From NCBI RefSeq assembly GCF_039932935.1, contig NZ_JBDTPB010000086.1, positions 6,057 through 70,056 on the forward strand: 64,000 bases of DNA, read 5' to 3'. Origin of the DNA: Polaromonas sp. GTDB taxonomy: Bacteria > Pseudomonadota > Gammaproteobacteria > Burkholderiales > Burkholderiaceae_C. How positions within the stretch are numbered: the stretch's first letter is position 1; every line of letters begins with the position of its first letter. The position numbers were made by a program, and so were the translations under genes. Below, piece by piece: positions 26,714 to 63,753 of the stretch. The notes beneath the pieces are model-generated. The model made no database searches. It had not been told where the DNA came from and worked only from the letters and a program-made list of their open reading frames with translations.

Positions 26714-27283
26714 CTAGCTCACTGGCTTGTTGATAAACCCGATCACCAGCCCGCGTTCCGTCACGGTGATGCTGCCCGGCTGCACGCCCATGCTGTCGGG
26801 CAGCGCCAGCTCTTGCGGCTTGAAGGTGTGCAGCACCGCGCCCTGCAGTGCCTGCTCTGCCAGCTGCGGGCCGTAGCCTGACAGCAGCATCGACGCTTGC
26901 GGCGCCAGGCCGTCAAACTGCAGCGTGTTCACGCGCAGTGCGTGCGCACGCACGGTCATGTCGCTGGGTTCATAGCGCAGCGCAAAGTCCAGGTCAAAGG
27001 TGCCGGGGTAGGCGCGTCCCAGTGCGGGGCCTGCGGCTTCCACTGCCATCGTGGCACCCAGGCGGTTTTTCTCGGACAGCATGCGCAGTTGCGGCACTTC
27101 AACCTGCAGATCAACCAGGCCGTTGGCGCGCTTGCGCATGGGAAAACGCTTGGCAATTGCCTCTTGCAATTGCGCTGTGGTCACCGTGTAGCTGGGCTGG
27201 GCGTGCGCGCCAAACAGCGCCAGGTACGCGGCCCCGCCCAGGGCAAAACGTGTAGAGGTGGCAAGCAGCAGTCGTCGTTTCAT
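26714..27283 (-). CDS. DUF1439 (YceB-like) exported protein
   Basis: Signal peptide; YTVTTAQLQEAIAKRFP and DFALRYEP patterns. Confidence 0.8.
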   Translation of the reverse strand: MKRRLLLATSTRFALGGAAYLALFGAHAQPSYTVTTAQLQEAIAKRFPMRKRANGLVDLQVEVPQLRMLSEKNRLGATMAVEAAGPALGRAYPGTFDLDFALRYEPSDMTVRAHALRVNTLQFDGLAPQASMLLSGYGPQLAEQALQGAVLHTFKPQELALPDSMGVQPGSITVTERGLVIGFINKPVS

Positions 27284-42667: not shown

Positions 42668-43960
42668 CTAACTCGCCGTCAGGCGCTTGACCATCTGGCG
42701 TGTGGTTCTGAGCACCAGCTTCTGCACACGTTCAACCAGAGACGCAGCGCCAGGAGACAGTGTGGGTAGCAGAGACTGTGCAGCGGCATCCAGCGCTGCG
42801 GGAAGCCGTTGGGCCATGTCGCTGGCGACTTGCAGCGCAAAGGCTGGCCCTACCCCCAGGTCTTTGGCCATTTGCCGTACGTGCGCCTGCGTGAGGGCGC
42901 CGGGCACGGTTTCACCGCCAATGGCAAAGGCGAAGTCACCCGACAAACCCGGGTACACGCGTGTGCACATGAGGTCGTAAAAGGGTGTCAGGCGCACTCC
43001 CTGGCCGAGCGGCTGGTACACCGACAGGTTTTTGGCGTGGCTGTCGTTGTTGCAGGTGTAAAGGTTAAAGAAGACCCAGGCCAGCAGGTTTTTGAGGTCG
43101 ATGGCCGGAACGGCGCTGTATTGCCGTACCAGCTGTGCGCACTGCACAAGTCCGGGGCCGCCCTCTTTTTCATATTTTTTCTCGGACACCACGCCGCTGA
43201 GCTGGCACAGGTCGTACTGGATCAACCGGCCCAGCCGGCCGTCGGCCTGAGCCACCCTGTCAAAACGCCGGACCACGCAGGCGTGCGTGTGCGGCTCATA
43301 GAACACCTCGGCCGTGGGCAGGCCGCAGCCGGCTGCTGTCAGCATGATGAGGCTCTCATTCGCGGCGGAATGCCAGACATCGGGCAGGCGGCGGATGTCG
43401 GGTTTGAGGATGTGGCTGGAAGGCGAAGCGCCGTGCGCCAGCTGCGGCACGCCGTCGGAAAAAATGGCAATGGAGCTTTTGTCTTGCGCACCAGCCAGTG
43501 AAATGCGGGTGCCGCGGCTGCGGATGTCGATGGCCGTTGCCGACTTGCCGCTCAGGCGCTGGGCCAAGGCCTCCCAGCTGGTGGGCGTGTACTGCGGCGG
43601 CGGGGGCTTGGTGCCCGCCGGCATGATGACAAAACCGCCGGCTGTGTCACCTGCGGTTTCAAGCAGCAGGCCATACAGGGTTGAGGCTTTGCGGCTGATG
43701 GCCAGGTAGTGGCGCAGATCTCCTTCAGGCAGCAGGTTCTCAAAAAATGCCTGCACGGCAGGCGCGTCGGTGCGGCCGGCGGCCAGGGTGATGGCCGCCA
43801 CCTGCGCCGCTGGGCGCCGGGCCAGCCATTCGGCGGAATAGTCGAATGACAGCGGTGAGGTGTCATACACGGCACCCACGCGCTCTTCGTTGAAGAACAC
43901 GTCCAGATGGCCCGCCTGGGCAGAGCCCTGCGGCGCAGATGGCAGGCCCGCGGGGGTCAT
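42668..43960 (-). CDS. hipA: HipA family toxin Ser/Thr kinase
   Basis: FFENLLPEG, ISLAGAQDK P-loop, HILKP, VVRRFDR, NNDSHAKNLS and LTPFYDL. Confidence 0.94.
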   Translation of the reverse strand: MTPAGLPSAPQGSAQAGHLDVFFNEERVGAVYDTSPLSFDYSAEWLARRPAAQVAAITLAAGRTDAPAVQAFFENLLPEGDLRHYLAISRKASTLYGLLLETAGDTAGGFVIMPAGTKPPPPQYTPTSWEALAQRLSGKSATAIDIRSRGTRISLAGAQDKSSIAIFSDGVPQLAHGASPSSHILKPDIRRLPDVWHSAANESLIMLTAAGCGLPTAEVFYEPHTHACVVRRFDRVAQADGRLGRLIQYDLCQLSGVVSEKKYEKEGGPGLVQCAQLVRQYSAVPAIDLKNLLAWVFFNLYTCNNDSHAKNLSVYQPLGQGVRLTPFYDLMCTRVYPGLSGDFAFAIGGETVPGALTQAHVRQMAKDLGVGPAFALQVASDMAQRLPAALDAAAQSLLPTLSPGAASLVERVQKLVLRTTRQMVKRLTAS

Positions 43961-52170: not shown

Positions 52171-52851
52171 CTACCTACAGGATTGAAGCGCCTTGCCCGC
52201 CAGCTGCGGCTTGAGGGCGTCAAGCTTGGTCATCAGCGGCGCATCGACGGCGGGCAGCTTGAGCAACTGGCCGCGTGCCTCGGGGCGTTCCAGCACCACC
52301 TTGGCGGTGCGCACGCCGCGTGTGGCAACTTTGGCCAGCTCGCGTTCGGCGTCGGCCTGGGCGTCGAAATGGCCGAGCGAAAGGCCCGGTCCCAGTGCCG
52401 GGTTGATCAGCGGCTCGAACGACACGCCGAGACCGCGCAGTTCGCCGCGCTTTTTGACCAGCGCTTCTTCATTGGCGTATTTGCCCATGTAGACGATCCA
52501 GCGGCCCGGCTCGACGCTGCTTTCAAGCGACCAGCTGCCGATGGGCAGGCTGCTTTCGAGTCCTGCGCGCAGGGCGGTGGTTTGTTCGGGCGTAAAAAGG
52601 CCGGCCTGCAGGCATTCGGGAGGCGCCGGGGGCGCGGCTGCGGCAGCTGCGGCGGTGGTGCCGAGGCCTTCGAGTTGGCGGGCCTCGGTCATGGTGAGCA
52701 GGAGCATCGCCTCAGGCCGGATTTGCTGTGCCAGGCGCTGGGGTTCGGCCTGAGCGACGGGGGCAAAGCCGTAGTCGGCCAGCAGGCCCTGCGTCCAGGC
52801 GAAGTAGCCGGCGTTGGCCAGCAGCAGCGCCAGCACCAGCAGCCTCAGCAT
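52171..52851 (-). CDS. SPOR domain protein
   Basis: N-terminal TM MLRLLVLALLLANAGYFAW; LSLGHFDAQADAEREL; downstream of birA. Confidence 0.85.
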   Translation of the reverse strand: MLRLLVLALLLANAGYFAWTQGLLADYGFAPVAQAEPQRLAQQIRPEAMLLLTMTEARQLEGLGTTAAAAAAAPPAPPECLQAGLFTPEQTTALRAGLESSLPIGSWSLESSVEPGRWIVYMGKYANEEALVKKRGELRGLGVSFEPLINPALGPGLSLGHFDAQADAERELAKVATRGVRTAKVVLERPEARGQLLKLPAVDAPLMTKLDALKPQLAGKALQSCR

Positions 52852-53732
52852 GGGCGGGCGCCTTCAGGGGGTTGGGCTGCAACGGGCCGCACGCTGACTT
52901 CGGAGCTGGTGATTTCTTTCATGCCAGCCGGAGTATGCACCAGCAGTGCGCCGTTTTCACCCACGCCGTGGGCGGTGCCTTCGATGCCATTTTGGCCGTC
53001 TGACAACTGCACGGCTTGCCCGGCCAGCACGTCGCGCGCGGCAAAACGTGCCTGAAAAGGCGCAAAGCCGAAGCGTTCAAAGGCTTGCACGGCCTGCACC
53101 AACGGCGGCACGATGCGCAGCAAGGTGGCGGGCGCATCCAGTGCCGGCAGCAGCGTCTGCAGGCCACCCGGCGGTATGCCGGGCAAGGGCGTGACGTGCG
53201 GCGCAGCGGGGATGTCTTGCGCGCAGATGTTGATGCCGATGCCGATCACCACATAGCGGACGCCTTCCCAGCTGGCGGTTTCAACAAGAATGCCGGCCAG
53301 TTTGCGCTCGCCTTCGGGGGTGGACAGCCAGAGGTCATTGGGCCATTTCAGGCCGATGCGGGGTTTGCCGGCCTGCCCAGGCACCAGCGGCTCCAGGCTT
53401 TCGGCCACGCTGATGCCCGCCACCAGCGAAAGGCCCGACCAGTCGGCGGGCGCCAGCGGAAGGCCCAGCGAAAAAGTGAGGCTGTCGCCGCGCCGGCTTT
53501 GCCATTGGCGACCCAGGCGGCCGCGGCCGGCGGTTTGCTGCTCGGCCACCAGCAGCAGCGGCTCGGGGCGGGGCTCCACTCCGGGGCTTCCGCGGAAGCG
53601 GCGCATGAGCTCGGTGTTGCTGGAGTCGATCTCGGGCAATACCTCGACCGTAAAGCCCGGCAAGATGGGTGCCACGGCCTCCCAGAGGGCCTCGGCAGGC
53701 CATCGGATGGGGGTTGCGAGGGGCGTGGTCAT
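52845..53732 (-). CDS. birA: Biotin-[acetyl-CoA carboxylase] ligase (no N-terminal HTH)
   Basis: SSNTELM, QTAGRGRLGRQW, LKWPNDL, KLAGILVE and IGIGIN. Confidence 0.95.
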   Translation of the reverse strand: MTTPLATPIRWPAEALWEAVAPILPGFTVEVLPEIDSSNTELMRRFRGSPGVEPRPEPLLLVAEQQTAGRGRLGRQWQSRRGDSLTFSLGLPLAPADWSGLSLVAGISVAESLEPLVPGQAGKPRIGLKWPNDLWLSTPEGERKLAGILVETASWEGVRYVVIGIGINICAQDIPAAPHVTPLPGIPPGGLQTLLPALDAPATLLRIVPPLVQAVQAFERFGFAPFQARFAARDVLAGQAVQLSDGQNGIEGTAHGVGENGALLVHTPAGMKEITSSEVSVRPVAAQPPEGARPC

Positions 53733-53812: not shown

Positions 53813-54508
53813 TCAGTCTTTCTTCTTGTTCTTGGGCTTCTTGTCGGATTTCTTATCGGCTTTTTTGTCAGCCTTCTTTTCCGCTTTTTTCTTGTCAGCC
53901 TTGGCCTCTGCCTTCTTCTCGGTCTTCTTCTCCGTCTTCTTCTCCGATTTCTTCACGGACTTCTTGGCCGACTTCTTCTTGCCCTTGCCCTTCTTGTCGT
54001 CGTCCTTGGGCGCCAGCAGCGTGCCGCGGCAGTTCTTGGCGCCGCACCAGCAGGGGTATTCGGCCAGCAGCTTCTTGGTGTAGGGCGCGTCGATGATCAG
54101 GCCGTAGTCATAAAACAGCTCTTCGCCGGCCTTGATGTTGCGCAACGCCTTGATGAAGACGCGGCCCTCGTTTTCATCGGCCTCGCAGTTGGGCTTGCAG
54201 CTGTGGTTGATCCAGCGCGAAGAATTGCCGCCGTGCTTGGCGTCAATCACGTGCTCTTCGTCAATGTGGAAGTAAAACGTGTGGTTGGGGTCTTTGGGGT
54301 CGTGCGGATGGCGGCGCAGCGCCTCTTTCCAGTTGATGATTTCGCCGATGTATTCGATCAGCGTCTCGCCTTCAGCGAGGTCTTGTACGGCGAAAACACC
54401 CTTGCCGTGCACGCCGGAGCGGCGGGTCTGAATGCGGCGTCCGTCGGCAGCGGGAGCCGCGGGTTTGAGGGGGGATGCGGGAGCTGCGGAGGCCTGGGTT
54501 TTTGACAC
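53813..54508 (-). CDS. SET-domain protein-lysine N-methyltransferase with post-SET and Lys-rich tail
   Basis: GKGVFA, RWINHSCKPNC, GEELFYDY and post-SET CWCGAKNC. Likely GTG start 54508. Confidence 0.92.
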   Translation of the reverse strand: MSKTQASAAPASPLKPAAPAADGRRIQTRRSGVHGKGVFAVQDLAEGETLIEYIGEIINWKEALRRHPHDPKDPNHTFYFHIDEEHVIDAKHGGNSSRWINHSCKPNCEADENEGRVFIKALRNIKAGEELFYDYGLIIDAPYTKKLLAEYPCWCGAKNCRGTLLAPKDDDKKGKGKKKSAKKSVKKSEKKTEKKTEKKAEAKADKKKAEKKADKKADKKSDKKPKNKKKD

Positions 54509-54534
54509 GACGGATTTTTTTGGTATGGTTAATT

Positions 54535-54588
54535 CATGCATGTGCGCGTGCGTGCGCATGTGCGCGCACCCGCGCGCGTACATGCGCG
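54535..54588. other. Alternating purine-pyrimidine tract (Z-DNA-prone)
   Basis: 54535-54569 is 35 nt of unbroken Y-R alternation and 54571-54588 a further 18 nt. Confidence 0.7.
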
Positions 54589-54626
54589 AGAGCCGCTATT
54601 GTAGTGATGCGCCCAAGGAGCCCCCT

Positions 54627-55160
54627 GTGTTGAACCGCCGAAACCTGATGCAGACCACTGCCGCCCTGGCCTTGCCCGCCGTGGCTGGGCTGAGCCTGCC
54701 TGCGTGGGCCAAGGGCGGTGAAAGCCCCCTGCCCAAGGCCGGCAGCACCCTGCCTTTGCCGGCCCTCACCCTGCTGGATGGAAGCACCTGGACGCCCGCA
54801 GCCGTGGCCGAAAAGACGCTTGTGGTGTACTGGTGGGCCAGCTGGTGCCCTTTTTGTGCGGTGCAGTCGCCCCATATAGAAGCCTTGTGGCGGGCTCAGA
54901 AGGCCAGCGGGCTGGAGGTGTTGGCGCTGTCCATCGACAAGCAGCCGGCCGCCGCTGCTACTTATATGAAGACCAAGGGCTACAGCTTCCCCGCCGGGAT
55001 GCTGACCCCCGAAGTCGCGAAATTTTTGCCCAAGCCGGTGGGCCTGCCCGTGGTGGTGGTGCTCAAGGTGGCGGCGAACGGACGTGAAGGCAAAGTCGTA
55101 TTTGCCGAAGGCGGGGAAATGTTCCCCGAAGATGTAGAAGGTTTGAAGAAGTACTTATGA
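54627..55160 (+). CDS. TlpA-like thioredoxin/disulfide reductase with Tat-like signal
   Basis: NRRNLM signal and WWASWCPFC; AAGGAG RBS; ATGA overlap with topB. Confidence 0.87.
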   Translation: MLNRRNLMQTTAALALPAVAGLSLPAWAKGGESPLPKAGSTLPLPALTLLDGSTWTPAAVAEKTLVVYWWASWCPFCAVQSPHIEALWRAQKASGLEVLALSIDKQPAAAATYMKTKGYSFPAGMLTPEVAKFLPKPVGLPVVVVLKVAANGREGKVVFAEGGEMFPEDVEGLKKYL

Positions 55161-58120
55161 AAACTCTGGTGATTGCAGAAAAACCCTCGGTCGCACAAGA
55201 CATTGTGCGGGCGATCACGCCCACGGCGGGCAAGTTTGAAAAGCACGACGAGTACTTTGAGAGCGACGAATGGCTGGTCACCTCGGCTGTCGGCCACCTG
55301 GTCGAGATCCAGGCGCCCGAAGAGTTCGACGTCAAGCGCGGCAAATGGAGCTTTGCCAACCTGCCCGTCATCCCGCCCTACTTTGACTTGAAGCCCATGG
55401 ACAAGACGAAGACGCGGCTGAACGCGATCGTCAAGCTGACCAAACGCAAGGACGTGAGCGCCCTCGTCAACGCCTGCGACGCGGGCCGCGAGGGCGAGCT
55501 GATCTTCAGGCTGATCCAGCAGTACTCGGCCAGCAAACACCCGGTCAAGCGCCTGTGGCTGCAGTCCATGACGCCCGCGGCGATCCGCGAGGGCTTTGAA
55601 AGCCTGCGCACCGAAAAGCAGATGCAGGGCCTGGCCGACGCGGCGCGTTCGCGCTCCGAAGCCGACTGGATGGTCGGCATCAACGGCACCCGCGCCATGA
55701 CGGCCTTCAACTCGCGTGACGGCGGCTTCTTTTTGACGACCGTGGGCCGCGTGCAGACGCCAACCTTGTCTGTGGTGGTGGAACGCGAAGAAAAAATCCG
55801 CAAGTTCGTGAGCCGGGACTATTGGGAAATCCACGCCAGCTTTCTTGCCGAAGCCGGCGAATACCCTGCAAAGTGGTTTGACCCGAAGTGGAAGAAGGCT
55901 GCAGCCAATGCCGACAACACAGAGCCCGATGCCGAGCTGAAGGCCGACCGTGTGTGGTCTGAGCGTGAAGCCATGGCCATTGCTGAAGCCGTGCGCGGCA
56001 AGGCCGCCACGGTGACGGAAGAAAGCAAGCCCACCACGCAGGCCGCCGGCCTGCTGTTTGATTTGACGTCTTTGCAGCGCGAGGCCAACGGCAAGTTCGG
56101 CTTCTCGGCCAAGACCACGCTGTCGATCGCGCAAAGCCTGTACGAGCGCCACAAGGCACTGACCTACCCGCGTACCGATTCGCGCGCGCTGCCGGAAGAC
56201 TACCTGCCGGTGGTCAAGCAGACCTTTGAAATGCTGGCCGCCAGCTCGATGAAGCACCTGGCGCCGCATGCGGCCACGGCCATCAAGGGCAACTACATCA
56301 AGCCCAGCAAGCGCATTTTCGACAACGCCAAGGTGAGCGACCACTTCGCCATCATCCCAACGCTGCAGGCGCCCAGTGGCCTGAGCGAGGCCGAGCAAAA
56401 ACTGTATGACCTGGTGGTGCGCCGTTTCATGGCGGTGTTTTTCCCGAGTGCCGAATACCTGGTGACCACCCGTATATCGCAGTCCGTCGGCCACAGCTTC
56501 AAGACCGAGGGCAAGGTCCTGGTCAAGCCGGGCTGGCTCGCCATTTACGGCAAGGAAGCCGCCGACGAAGTGGCCGACGCCAAGGACGGCGACAAGGGCC
56601 AGAGCCTGGTGCCGGTCACGCCCGGCGAGATGGTGCGTGCCGAAGTGGTCGAGGCCAAGGGGCTGAAGACCCGGCCGCCCGCCCGCTATTCGGAAGCGAC
56701 ATTGCTGGGCGCGATGGAAGGCGCCGGCAAGACGATTGACGACGACGAGCTGCGCGAAGCCATGCAGGAAAAAGGCCTGGGCACCCCGGCCACCCGCGCC
56801 GCCACGATTGAAGGCTTGATCGCCGAGAAATACATGCTGCGCGAAGGCCGCGAGCTGATCCCCACGGCCAAGGCTTTTCAGCTGATGACGCTGCTGCGCG
56901 GGCTGGACGTGCAGGAGCTGTCAAAGGCCGAGCTCACCGGTGAGTGGGAGTTCAAGCTGGCACAAATGGAGCACGGCCAGCTGAGCCGCGAGACCTTCAT
57001 GGCCGAGATCGCCACCATGACCGAGCGCATGGTGGCCAAGGCCAAGGGCTATGACAAGGACACCATTCCTGGCGACTACGCCACGCTGACGGCGCCCTGC
57101 CCCAACTGCGGCGGCGTGATCAAGGAAAACTACCGCCGCTACACCTGCACCGGCAAGAAGGGCGACGACGGTTGCGGTTTCTCCTTTGGCAAGACGCCGG
57201 CCGGCCGCACCTTTGAAGTGGCCGAGGTCGAGCAGTTCCTGCGTGACAAAAAGATCGGGCCGCTGGACGGTTTCCGCTCCAAGGCCGGCTGGCCTTTCAC
57301 CGCCGAGATGGTGATCAAGTTTGACGAAGAGACGAAGAACTACAAGCTTGAATTCGACTTCGGCGACGACAAGAACGGTGAGACCGGCGAGATCGTCGAC
57401 TTCGGCGAACAACAGTCGCTCGGCCCTTGCCCGCGCTGTGCCTCACGCGTGCTTGAGCTCGGCAAAAACTACGTCTGCGAAAAGTCGGTGCCGACGAATG
57501 AGCAGCCCACGCCCAGCTGCACCTTCAAGACCGGCCAGGTGATATTGCAGCAGCCGATTGAACGCGAGCAGATGCACAAGCTGCTGGAAACCGGCAAGAC
57601 CGATTTGCTTGACAAGTTCGTTTCGATGCGCACGCGCCGCCCCTTCAAGGCCATGCTGGCCTGGGACAAAGAGGCCGACAAGGTGAATTTTGAATTCGCG
57701 CCGTCCAAATTCCCGCCGCGCAAACCGGCGGCGGCCAAGACCGGTACGGTGAAAACACCTTTCGGCAAGACGGTGGCGGCCAAGGGCGCACCCGCAGCGA
57801 AAAAGGTAGCGGCCAAAAAAGTCGCCGCCAAGAAAACGCCTGCTGTCAAAACCGCCAAGCCCAAGACCCCCCGTGTCGCCAAGCCGGGCGCAGGCCTCAA
57901 GCCCAGCGACGCGTTGGCTGCGGTGATTGGTGCCGAGCCGGTGGCCCGCACCCAGGTCATCAAAAAGCTCTGGGACTACATCAAGGCCGAAGGCCTGCAG
58001 GACGCGGCCAACAAGCGCGCCATCAATGCCGACGCCAAGCTGCTGCCGGTGTTCGGCAAGCCGCAGGTCACGATGTTTGAGTTGGCCGGGATTGTGGGCA
58101 AGCACCTGACCGCAGAGTAA
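55157..58120 (+). CDS. topB: DNA topoisomerase III with zinc ribbons, Lys/Ala-rich linker and C-terminal SWIB/MDM2 domain
   Basis: IAEKPS Toprim, CDAGREGE, GRVQTPT, catalytic TYPRTDS, GLGTPATRA, and SWIB motif VIKKLWDYIKAEGLQDAANKRAINAD. Confidence 0.96.
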   Translation: MKTLVIAEKPSVAQDIVRAITPTAGKFEKHDEYFESDEWLVTSAVGHLVEIQAPEEFDVKRGKWSFANLPVIPPYFDLKPMDKTKTRLNAIVKLTKRKDVSALVNACDAGREGELIFRLIQQYSASKHPVKRLWLQSMTPAAIREGFESLRTEKQMQGLADAARSRSEADWMVGINGTRAMTAFNSRDGGFFLTTVGRVQTPTLSVVVEREEKIRKFVSRDYWEIHASFLAEAGEYPAKWFDPKWKKAAANADNTEPDAELKADRVWSEREAMAIAEAVRGKAATVTEESKPTTQAAGLLFDLTSLQREANGKFGFSAKTTLSIAQSLYERHKALTYPRTDSRALPEDYLPVVKQTFEMLAASSMKHLAPHAATAIKGNYIKPSKRIFDNAKVSDHFAIIPTLQAPSGLSEAEQKLYDLVVRRFMAVFFPSAEYLVTTRISQSVGHSFKTEGKVLVKPGWLAIYGKEAADEVADAKDGDKGQSLVPVTPGEMVRAEVVEAKGLKTRPPARYSEATLLGAMEGAGKTIDDDELREAMQEKGLGTPATRAATIEGLIAEKYMLREGRELIPTAKAFQLMTLLRGLDVQELSKAELTGEWEFKLAQMEHGQLSRETFMAEIATMTERMVAKAKGYDKDTIPGDYATLTAPCPNCGGVIKENYRRYTCTGKKGDDGCGFSFGKTPAGRTFEVAEVEQFLRDKKIGPLDGFRSKAGWPFTAEMVIKFDEETKNYKLEFDFGDDKNGETGEIVDFGEQQSLGPCPRCASRVLELGKNYVCEKSVPTNEQPTPSCTFKTGQVILQQPIEREQMHKLLETGKTDLLDKFVSMRTRRPFKAMLAWDKEADKVNFEFAPSKFPPRKPAAAKTGTVKTPFGKTVAAKGAPAAKKVAAKKVAAKKTPAVKTAKPKTPRVAKPGAGLKPSDALAAVIGAEPVARTQVIKKLWDYIKAEGLQDAANKRAINADAKLLPVFGKPQVTMFELAGIVGKHLTAE

Positions 58121-62619: not shown

Positions 62620-63753
62620 TCATAAAGCGGCTTCGAACAATTTTTGGAAGTCTTCTGATTTGCAGGGGCGCGGATTCGTCTGGTGGCAGATGTCAGCCGT
62701 GGCGATTTCCACCAGGCGCGGCAGGTGCTCACGCTTGACGCCATGAGCCGACAGTGAGCCGGTGATGCCGACGCTTTCTTTCAGCTGCTTGAGCCAGGGC
62801 ACAAAAGCCTTGCCGCCCCCAGCGACGCCGCACACATGGGCCAGCTCGTCAAACTTGGCGGGTGCCGATTCGTAGTTCCAGGCCAGCACGGTGTCGATCA
62901 TCAGCGCGTTGGCCAGCCCATGGTGCAGGTCGCACACGGTGCCCAGCGCATGCGCGCACGAGTGCACGGCGCCCAGGTCTTTCTGGAAGGCGATGGCGCC
63001 CATCATCGACGCCATCATCATGTCGCTGCGTGCGTCCAGATTGGACGGCTCCTTCACGGCCTTGAGCAGCGCGCGGGCCGCGATGCGTGTGCCTTCGAGC
63101 GCGATGCCGTCGCACAGCGGGTGGTAGGCCGGCGAGAGGTAGCTTTCGATGTTGTGTGTGAGGGCGTCCATGCCGGTGGCGGCCGTCACATGCGGCGGCA
63201 GGGCCAGTGTGAGCTCCGGGTCGGCGAACACCACCTTGGCCAGAATCTTGGGACTGAACACCACGCGCTTGATGTGCGTGTCGTTTTCGCTGACGACCGA
63301 AGAGCGGCCCACCTCGGAGCCGGTGCCCGACGTCGTGGGCAAGGCCACGAAGTAAGGCAACTCGTTCACGATGGGGCGTACTTTGGGATGGTCCCAGACG
63401 TATTCGAGGATGTCGCCTTCGTGCGTGGCGGCAATGCCCACCACCTTGGCGACGTCCAGCGCCGCGCCGCCGCCAAAGCCGATCACGCAGTCCGCCTTGT
63501 GGGCCTTGTAAGCTGCGGCGCCATCCATGACCTGGCTGCAGGTCGGGTTGCCGAAGACGCCAGAGAACACCGCTACGTCCAGCCCTGCCAGGTGGGTTTT
63601 GAATTCAGCGAGCACCGGCAGCGCGCCCAGCGCCTTGTCGGTCACGATCAGCGGGCGTTTGCAGCCGGCGTCAAGCAGCGCCTGCGCGACCTGCTTGCGG
63701 GCGCCAGCGCCGAAGCGGATGGCGGTGGGGAAGGAGAAGTTGGTGGTGCTCAT
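62620..63753 (-). CDS. Iron-containing alcohol dehydrogenase
   Basis: GFGGGAALD, PTTSGTGSE, DALTHNIES and HSCAH. Confidence 0.94.
   Translation of the reverse strand: MSTTNFSFPTAIRFGAGARKQVAQALLDAGCKRPLIVTDKALGALPVLAEFKTHLAGLDVAVFSGVFGNPTCSQVMDGAAAYKAHKADCVIGFGGGAALDVAKVVGIAATHEGDILEYVWDHPKVRPIVNELPYFVALPTTSGTGSEVGRSSVVSENDTHIKRVVFSPKILAKVVFADPELTLALPPHVTAATGMDALTHNIESYLSPAYHPLCDGIALEGTRIAARALLKAVKEPSNLDARSDMMMASMMGAIAFQKDLGAVHSCAHALGTVCDLHHGLANALMIDTVLAWNYESAPAKFDELAHVCGVAGGGKAFVPWLKQLKESVGITGSLSAHGVKREHLPRLVEIATADICHQTNPRPCKSEDFQKLFEAAL

Follow-up and report, generated by a model that had tools for sequence, protein, structure and literature searches.

The window, by which we mean the whole 64,000-nt stretch of Polaromonas DNA analysed here, contains a 118-nt intergenic region flanked by genes on opposite strands. 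Left of this region, on the minus strand, lie a gene encoding a SET-domain protein (53813..54508; Pfam SET, E = 7.6e-26; 231 aa when read from GTG 54508; C-terminal tail rich in lysine) and a gene encoding a birA-like biotin protein ligase (52845..53732; Pfam BPL_LplA_LipB and BPL_C). The birA-like gene is located downstream of SET on the same strand, and their arrangement points to a probable SET-birA operon; the same order, SET followed by the birA-like gene, was found in Rhodoferax (L081) and at locus L083. To the right, on the plus strand, is a tlpA/redoxin-like gene for an exported thiol-disulfide oxidoreductase (54627..55160; Pfam Redoxin, AhpC-TSA, and Thioredoxin), which starts with GTG 54627 and is preceded by the Shine-Dalgarno sequence AAGGAG at 54615-54620. 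It is followed by topB, a topoisomerase III-type gene encoding 987 aa (55157..58120; Pfam Toprim, Topoisom_bac, Toprim_Crpt, and SWIB), whose product carries zinc-ribbon repeats, a Lys/Ala-rich linker, and a SWIB domain. The topB start overlaps the stop codon of the tlpA-like gene (ATGA, 55157-55160), and the two genes are translationally coupled.

The preliminary description of this region treated the topoisomerase and SET genes as divergent neighbors. This arrangement holds in most relatives, whereas in the present genome the tlpA-like gene separates the intergenic region from topB. In this position, the tlpA-like gene is found mostly in one Polaromonas subclade, as well as in two Ramlibacter loci (L062 and L080). 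Where it is absent, topB either directly follows a conserved box described below (Box D) or, in some Polaromonas, lies behind a spacer of 150-200 nt. The tlpA-like gene thus looks like an insertion into the topB leader. An ATG just after Box D (tattgtagtgATG, 54607-54633) opens a mini-ORF of eight codons, MRPRSPLC, whose stop overlaps the GTG region of the tlpA-like gene; this mini-ORF may be left over from the place where topB started ancestrally.

The most unusual feature of the region is an in-register pyrimidine-purine alternation at 54535..54588, to which no strand is assigned. It is 54 nt long with one out-of-alternation base, C54570, and is composed of 12 CG, 13 CA/TG, 1 TA, and 1 CC dinucleotide steps. 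Earlier, the same sequence had been described as two strict runs of 35 nt (54535-54569) and 18 nt (54571-54588) separated by one extra C. The letters of both runs are exact; the C, however, is not inserted, since it occupies a purine position and the alternation register is unbroken across it, so that the break is of the substitution type and the two runs form one in-phase tract. Of the 118 nt that separate SET GTG 54508 from tlpA-like GTG 54627, the tract accounts for 54, in agreement with the earlier estimate of nearly half of the gap. It mixes CG, TG, CA, and TA steps, with pure runs of a few units at most, and is therefore not a repeat of one homogeneous unit.

To express how unusual the tract is, we scored alternating segments with +1 for each base in phase and -3 for each base out of phase. 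By this measure, the tract reaches 50, compared with 19 for the runner-up in the 64-kb window and with a mean of 20.1 and a maximum of 30 in 300 dinucleotide-preserving shuffles of the window; the Gumbel-fitted tail probability for the tract score is about 8e-8 per 64-kb window. When strict runs only are considered, the longest run in 200 shuffles is 30 nt, compared with the 35 nt observed. The previous remark that nothing comparable occurs elsewhere in the window is borne out, the next-longest strict run being 19 nt. The next-best alternating runs of the window, 17-23 nt in length (42953-42971, 62946-62968, and 26938-26954), are within the shuffle range; the run at 42953-42971 is a near-palindrome, GTACACGCGTGTGCACATG, located inside long ORFs.

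We further analysed the orthologous regions in related genomes. A scan of species-representative genomes with the SET core yielded 80 loci from Polaromonas, Hydrogenophaga, Hylemonella, Curvibacter, Limnohabitans, Ramlibacter, and unclassified Comamonadaceae, and two more loci were later added from Rhodoferax and one further genome, giving 82 loci. Protein searches with SET returned Comamonadaceae members only, owing to the high conservation of the SET core. All 82 loci, which cover seven named Comamonadaceae genera, share a common layout: the SET start, a T-run, a box of the form TGGTAWGGT (Box B), five or six bases, the alternating tract, AGRA-rich linker bases, and Box D, (T/G)ATTGTAG, after which the topB ATG follows in the non-Polaromonas genera. 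The alternation is thus kept at the same place in the 82 loci despite sequence change, which was the test that the preliminary description had set for orthologous regions, with degraded tracts at two of them (L054 and L060). A pattern search located both boxes at 75 loci, and at all of these the tract is in a single register, 28-62 nt long, and contains 0-6 out-of-alternation bases. These comprise about 60 distinct tract sequences, in which all interruptions are of the substitution type and register slips number zero. Perfect tracts of differing sequence are found at L013 (38 nt), L028 (40 nt), L062 (47 nt), and L080 (33 nt). Roughly 464 kb of DNA flanking 80 of the orthologous loci is free of a comparable tract outside the orthologous one; three apparent exceptions were Ramlibacter loci at which the anchor coordinate was off and the orthologous tract itself had been scored as flank.

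Both exceptional loci belong to Polaromonas and represent natural loss variants. At L054, clean alternation is lost in favor of 8-nt RGGYGCGY repeats with 5 out-of-phase bases, and at L060 the tract is replaced by an AT-richer sequence in which 13 alternating bases are left. Because these two loci have degraded or replaced it, the tract is dispensable in some contexts.

The tract lies between two conserved promoter-like boxes. Box B, TGGTATGGT, is an extended -10 element (TG-n-TATGGT) on the plus strand at 54521..54529, which is conserved in the orthologues, nearly all of which keep TGnTAWGNT. It is preceded by a -35 hexamer, TTGACA (54502..54507, plus strand), with a 16-nt spacer to Box B, and a promoter scan rated the pair as near-consensus (10/12 matches plus TG, with 0.0 expected in shuffles). 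The hexamer shares bases with the GTG start codon of SET, which is on the other strand, and -35-like variants TGGACA, TTAGCA, and TCGTCA were observed in the orthologues. The predicted +1 of the Box B promoter, at about 54536 (C-1/A+1), coincides with the first step of the tract, and the other genera also have a Y-1/R+1 step at this position. Inspected by eye as a possible sigma-54 promoter, Box B was rejected, as the GG-N10-GC spacing does not fit, and a further inspection by eye found no credible minus-strand -10 hexamer in or to the left of Box B.

As a separate observation, a polymerase at the topB-side promoter would cover the DNA of the SET translation start region. An insertion of 10-14 nt between the SET GTG and Box B was noted at L013, L022, L025, L028, L032, L040-L042, L048, L053, and L060, and in many cases takes the form of a short inverted repeat (cttttcggaaaag or ttttcgtgaaaa, for example). 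The insertion moves the -35-like hexamer out of place and leaves the extended -10 alone, as in the lineages with 10-12 extra nt, in which the spacing is lost.

Box D, TATTGTAG, at 54597..54604, can be read on either strand; its ATTGTA core is present in every orthologue read, two Ramlibacter loci having ATTCTA instead. Read on the minus strand, Box D gives TACAAT, which matches 5/6 positions of a -10 hexamer, faces SET, and has a predicted +1 near 54591; no good -35 was seen for this reading, and the start context is pyrimidine-rich. Box D is nonetheless the candidate SET promoter, because SET transcription must start to the right of its start codon and there is no other conserved candidate. 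On the plus strand, Box D reads TATTGT/GATTGT and, in genera other than Polaromonas, precedes the topB ATG by 3-6 nt. The A of that ATG falls at about +1 of the plus-strand box in Hylemonella, Curvibacter, Rhodoferax, Limnohabitans, and Ramlibacter, and no Shine-Dalgarno sequence was found before topB in these five genera; the position of the plus-strand box suggests a leaderless topB mRNA there. Judged from the boxes, the most likely overall layout is a pair of opposed transcription units with leaders that overlap over the length of the tract. The earlier placement of the tract upstream of two back-to-back promoters is not upheld, as the tract begins at the predicted +1 of Box B and ends just before Box D.

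An in-frame upstream SET start at ATG 54583, which would make the tract coding, had been raised as a possibility, and we addressed it by a frame analysis of the 67 orthologous loci where both the SET anchor and Box B could be located. The distance from Box B to the in-frame SET-side start beyond it (GTG in most loci, ATG or TTG in seven) is 10, 11, 12, 13, 22, 23, or 24 nt and is not constant modulo 3, the 22-24 nt distances belonging to lineages with a small insertion, and about 20 loci lack any in-frame start farther upstream than Box B. Starts at 54583 or 54541 were rejected, as neither frame nor start is conserved among the orthologues, and the comparison indicates that the tract is non-coding and that SET starts at GTG 54508. 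The minus-strand ORF is open up to ATG 54583 because alternation excludes stop codons from every frame of either strand, TAA, TAG, and TGA being neither YRY nor RYR. For the same reason, ORF callers stretch SET into or up to the tract. Public homologue annotations differ in their SET starts (MHELT..., MSKNQ..., and MPTAT...), and the MHELTIPKK starts of several of them (homologues P0013, P0083, and P0104 being relevant here) are probably the promoter box read as protein.

What is conserved in the tract was assessed from alignments of the orthologues. With Box B as the anchor, 0.5-0.7 of the possible 1 bit per position resides in the purine/pyrimidine class out to about +40; the alignment anchored on Box D is without register. 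The preference for C/G within the purine or pyrimidine class amounts to 0.41 bit per position, well above background, and agrees with the order of B-Z transition energies, CG < CA/TG < TA. Relative to topB third codon positions, equal-length tract pairs show about one third of the transversions per site and about 0.6 of the transitions. On a minimum spanning tree, 94 transitions and 50 transversions were counted in the tract, compared with 927 and 706 at topB third positions (odds ratio 1.43, p = 0.053); this transition excess is in the expected direction but modest and borderline, and we place no weight on it. All 41 internal gaps in the pairwise tract alignments are even in length. We discount them as evidence of selection because slippage gives even indels and because the tracts were defined as in-phase segments; continuity of register, likewise, would also be expected from slippage within an alternating tract without selection.

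These patterns bear on two alternative explanations, each of which we consider improbable. The first is that the tract is a neutral compound microsatellite, a self-perpetuating CG/TG/CA repeat that is purified by slippage and has no function. The wide variation of length between species, the uniformly even gaps, the moderate constraint against transversions, and the decay of the tract at L054 and L060 are all compatible with such a repeat. It would, however, have to recur at the same position and in the same register beside a promoter box in at least seven genera, while the flanking DNA surveyed above contains nothing similar, and its heterogeneous sequence makes a poor slippage substrate. Length variants are also missing from the contigs of four metagenome runs, where the sequence is identical and free of variants or indels; these runs come from one study, one of them is possibly the source of the window itself, and rare variants drop out of contigs.

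The second is that the tract is a protein operator, in which a regulator or nucleoid protein, possibly the lysine-tailed SET protein or TopB, binds reiterated GYGCGCGC-like motifs over both starts. In its favor, the best-conserved part of the tract is the first ~16 nt after Box B (1.0-1.7 bits), GTGCGCGC-type words recur within the tracts, and L054 carries the 8-nt repeats mentioned above. Beyond about +20, by contrast, it is mainly the purine/pyrimidine class and the C/G preference that are conserved, with no fixed sequence, and the position, number, and spacing of the motifs are not fixed among genera, where the tract ranges from 28 to 62 nt and the distance between Box B and Box D from 40 to 77 nt. 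We therefore give the operator little credence.

Because of its alternation, the tract is self-complementary, and its folding was compared with that of shuffles preserving the purine/pyrimidine pattern and the composition. For the 60 distinct tracts, the mean z is -0.35, and 13% fall below -1.64. Selection for a specific hairpin or cruciform was accordingly not seen, folding being no better than in the alternation-preserving shuffles; the self-complementarity of the tract is explained by alternation, and it appears to be alternation itself that is kept and not a particular fold. Comparison of the tract with Rfam gave no family above threshold (best match mir-297, 27.4 bits against a threshold of 90), and this sub-threshold, miRNA-like match arises because CA/TG repeats form hairpins.

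The tract is probably transcribed, and RNA data from relatives were considered in this light. Oligo-dT RNA contigs of the Curvibacter-like locus L049 have SET-side ends 22 and 40 nt inside the tract, and others cross the whole region. At the Hydrogenophaga locus L050, the SET-side RNA contigs end 39-42 nt inside the tract, one contig spans everything, and the topB-side contig stops 12 nt before the predicted Box B start. The contigs are unstranded, with depths of 3-13, and no raw RNA reads were matched in the public runs. Since DNA contigs, too, break off where Box B meets the tract, an RNA contig that stops within the tract cannot be taken to mark a transcription start.

An RNA-level element is a further alternative, which we regard as unlikely, though more probable than the other alternatives. 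Here, the tract would be the 5' leader of the topB operon mRNA and an antisense SET leader, and would act either, through its GC-rich folding, as a 5'-terminal stem-loop that stabilizes the mRNA or gates its translation, or through a sense/antisense overlap of ~55 nt that forms double-stranded RNA and couples the genes. The start of the tract at the predicted +1 of the Box B promoter fits this explanation, as do the predicted pairing of the plus-strand leader from nucleotide 4 (-38 to -48 kcal/mol, z = -1.9), the folding of the minus-strand leader (z = -2.3), and the RNA contigs of relatives that reach from SET 22-40 nt into the tract or cross the region. An RNA hairpin, however, needs neither strict purine/pyrimidine alternation nor a single register; in folding energy, the tracts do not surpass alternation-preserving shuffles, and neither a shared fold nor compensatory changes emerged among them. 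In addition, the transcription starts are predicted, and the ends of strandless RNA contigs are weak evidence.

A position within transcribed leaders would also accommodate an element acting on elongation, namely a two-way array of pause motifs that would slow or stall polymerases leaving either promoter and make interference between the two opposed units sensitive to torque. The elemental pause consensus, G(-10) Y(-1) G(+1), reportedly comes from NET-seq studies of 2014. G-N8-YG occurs at 14 of 44 plus-strand and 11 of 44 minus-strand positions of the tract, compared with 0.053 per position in the window, and the site just past +1 would suit promoter-proximal pausing. This enrichment, however, follows automatically from alternation and GC-richness, and the stricter form with GG at (-11,-10) is absent from the tract, so that a pause array has a slim chance of being the explanation.

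We place a reading based on DNA structure first, because a B-Z element requires single-register, CG-preferring alternation, which an RNA hairpin, an operator, or coding does not. The propensity of the tract for Z-DNA was modelled with a one-run statistical partition function for a domain of N = 5 kb, using published energies of 0.7 (CG), 1.3 (CA/TG), 2.5 (TA), and 2.4 (CC) kcal/mol per dinucleotide and a cost of 5 kcal/mol per B-Z junction (PMC3024258, Table 1). The modelled P(Z) is 0.54 at a superhelical density of -0.035 and 0.998 at -0.04, and by -0.05 all 54 bp are predicted to be in the Z form, with about 10 turns removed. According to the model, the tract dominates Z formation within its 5 kb. 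Its onset, at about -0.038 (-0.035 to -0.04), precedes that of every other site in the window, the value for short (CG)-rich sites of 10-20 bp, (CG)5-8, being -0.042. This advantage in onset is small, and in the model the distinguishing trait of the tract is the amount of twist that it absorbs. As a potential Z-DNA-forming sequence, it thus combines a long, CG/CA/TG-rich, single anti-syn register with a predicted B-Z transition, and the original designation of the tract as Z-prone agrees with the modelled transition at negative superhelical densities that can be attained. For E. coli, the value commonly given for unconstrained supercoiling is less negative than the predicted onset, and torsion driven by transcription would therefore be needed.

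Taking the layout and the modelling together, we tentatively favor, at somewhat less than an even chance, a putative conserved, supercoil-responsive, Z-prone DNA-structure element in the shared SET(-birA)/(tlpA-)topB control region of the Comamonadaceae. Under sufficiently negative local superhelical stress, either global or left in the wakes of polymerases that have departed in both directions, the tract would flip from B to Z. The flip would absorb about 10 helical turns and place B-Z junctions beside both -10 boxes, and it could thereby affect how transcription of the two opposing units initiates, escapes, or reads through, tying the expression of a type IA topoisomerase and its partner genes to DNA topology. 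Of the preliminary interpretation, the exceptional and non-coding nature of the tract, its modelled Z-propensity, and its conserved alternation are supported, whereas supercoil sensing and feedback on topB and SET are hypotheses. Z-DNA could block polymerases, or a junction beside the AT-rich discriminator could aid melting. RNA-level or elongation-level roles would suit the position of the tract in transcribed leaders equally well. A more specific version, which we find doubtful, is a torsion-gated toggle, whereby the B-to-Z flip decides which of the opposed promoters, that of the topB operon or that of SET-birA, fires or reads through. If true, such a toggle would allow a type IA topoisomerase to sense and correct local topology via DNA shape, with no protein regulator and family-wide.

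Several known systems resemble the tract in part. Engineered (CG)n/(CA)n inserts forming Z-DNA reportedly served Rahmouni and Wells (1989) as in vivo probes of supercoiling on E. coli plasmids. These inserts share with the tract alternating CG/CA steps, a length of tens of bp, a location next to divergent genes, and the same energetics, and a build-up of negative supercoiling driven by transcription turns them to the Z form. They are, however, artificial, homogeneous, and located upstream of promoters, whereas the tract is natural, heterogeneous, conserved across a family, and located at the +1 and in the leader of a topoisomerase operon. A natural alternating purine-pyrimidine element in a prokaryotic promoter is the RY box of the Halobacterium bop promoter, for which Yang et al. 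(1996) are said to have found supercoiling-dependent expression and non-B DNA; it is archaeal, ~11 bp long, and upstream of the start, whereas the tracts are 28-62 bp long, start at +1, and are conserved across genera. Promoter-proximal Z-DNA-forming sequences of eukaryotes ("flipons") are thought to serve as torsion-dependent switches or buffers and, like the tract, are alternating purine-pyrimidine sequences near transcription starts. The tract differs from them in its bacterial setting, in which no Z-alpha reader is known. Eukaryotic flipons have been reviewed in PMC11293857 and PMC13463272.

Two further comparisons concern the shared control region and its transcripts, respectively. Like the tract, the phase-variable (TA)n repeat in the overlapping divergent promoters of hifA and hifB of Haemophilus influenzae consists of dinucleotide units, varies in length, and is part of a control region common to divergent genes. 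The hif repeat has one unit throughout, is placed between the -35 and -10 elements, where it sets their spacing, and varies within populations, whereas the tract is of mixed sequence and follows the Box B -10 hexamer, outside the -35/-10 spacer. Excludon-type antisense organization involves overlapping divergent 5' leaders, so that, as at the tract locus, opposed units with overlapping 5' regions occur and one is able to interfere with the other. Excludons, however, lack an alternating tract, and the overlap at the tract locus is predicted from the boxes and the unstranded RNA contigs.

Bacterial Z-DNA work has mostly dealt with artificial (CG)n inserts, and a regulatory role of Z-DNA in bacteria is an old open question, for which the tract is a natural candidate, with alternation, register, and CG-richness kept in at least seven genera. 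A 2026 review describes the in vivo evidence for regulatory Z-DNA in bacteria as limited (PMC13463272), and a full-text literature search found no description of the present element. The region of ~120 bp provides a concrete and cheap test system. Torsion sensing by the tract, if true, would constitute a structural, protein-free input to supercoiling homeostasis; without torsion sensing, the conservation of strict alternation still calls for explanation. The tract lies exactly where a topoisomerase operon is predicted to begin and has a gene for a chromatin-type methyltransferase on its other side. As a minor observation, the proteins from both tract-flanking genes contain histone-H1-like basic segments: the SET tail (53813-54013) is about half lysine, and TopB carries the Lys/Ala-rich linker and SWIB (57800-58120).
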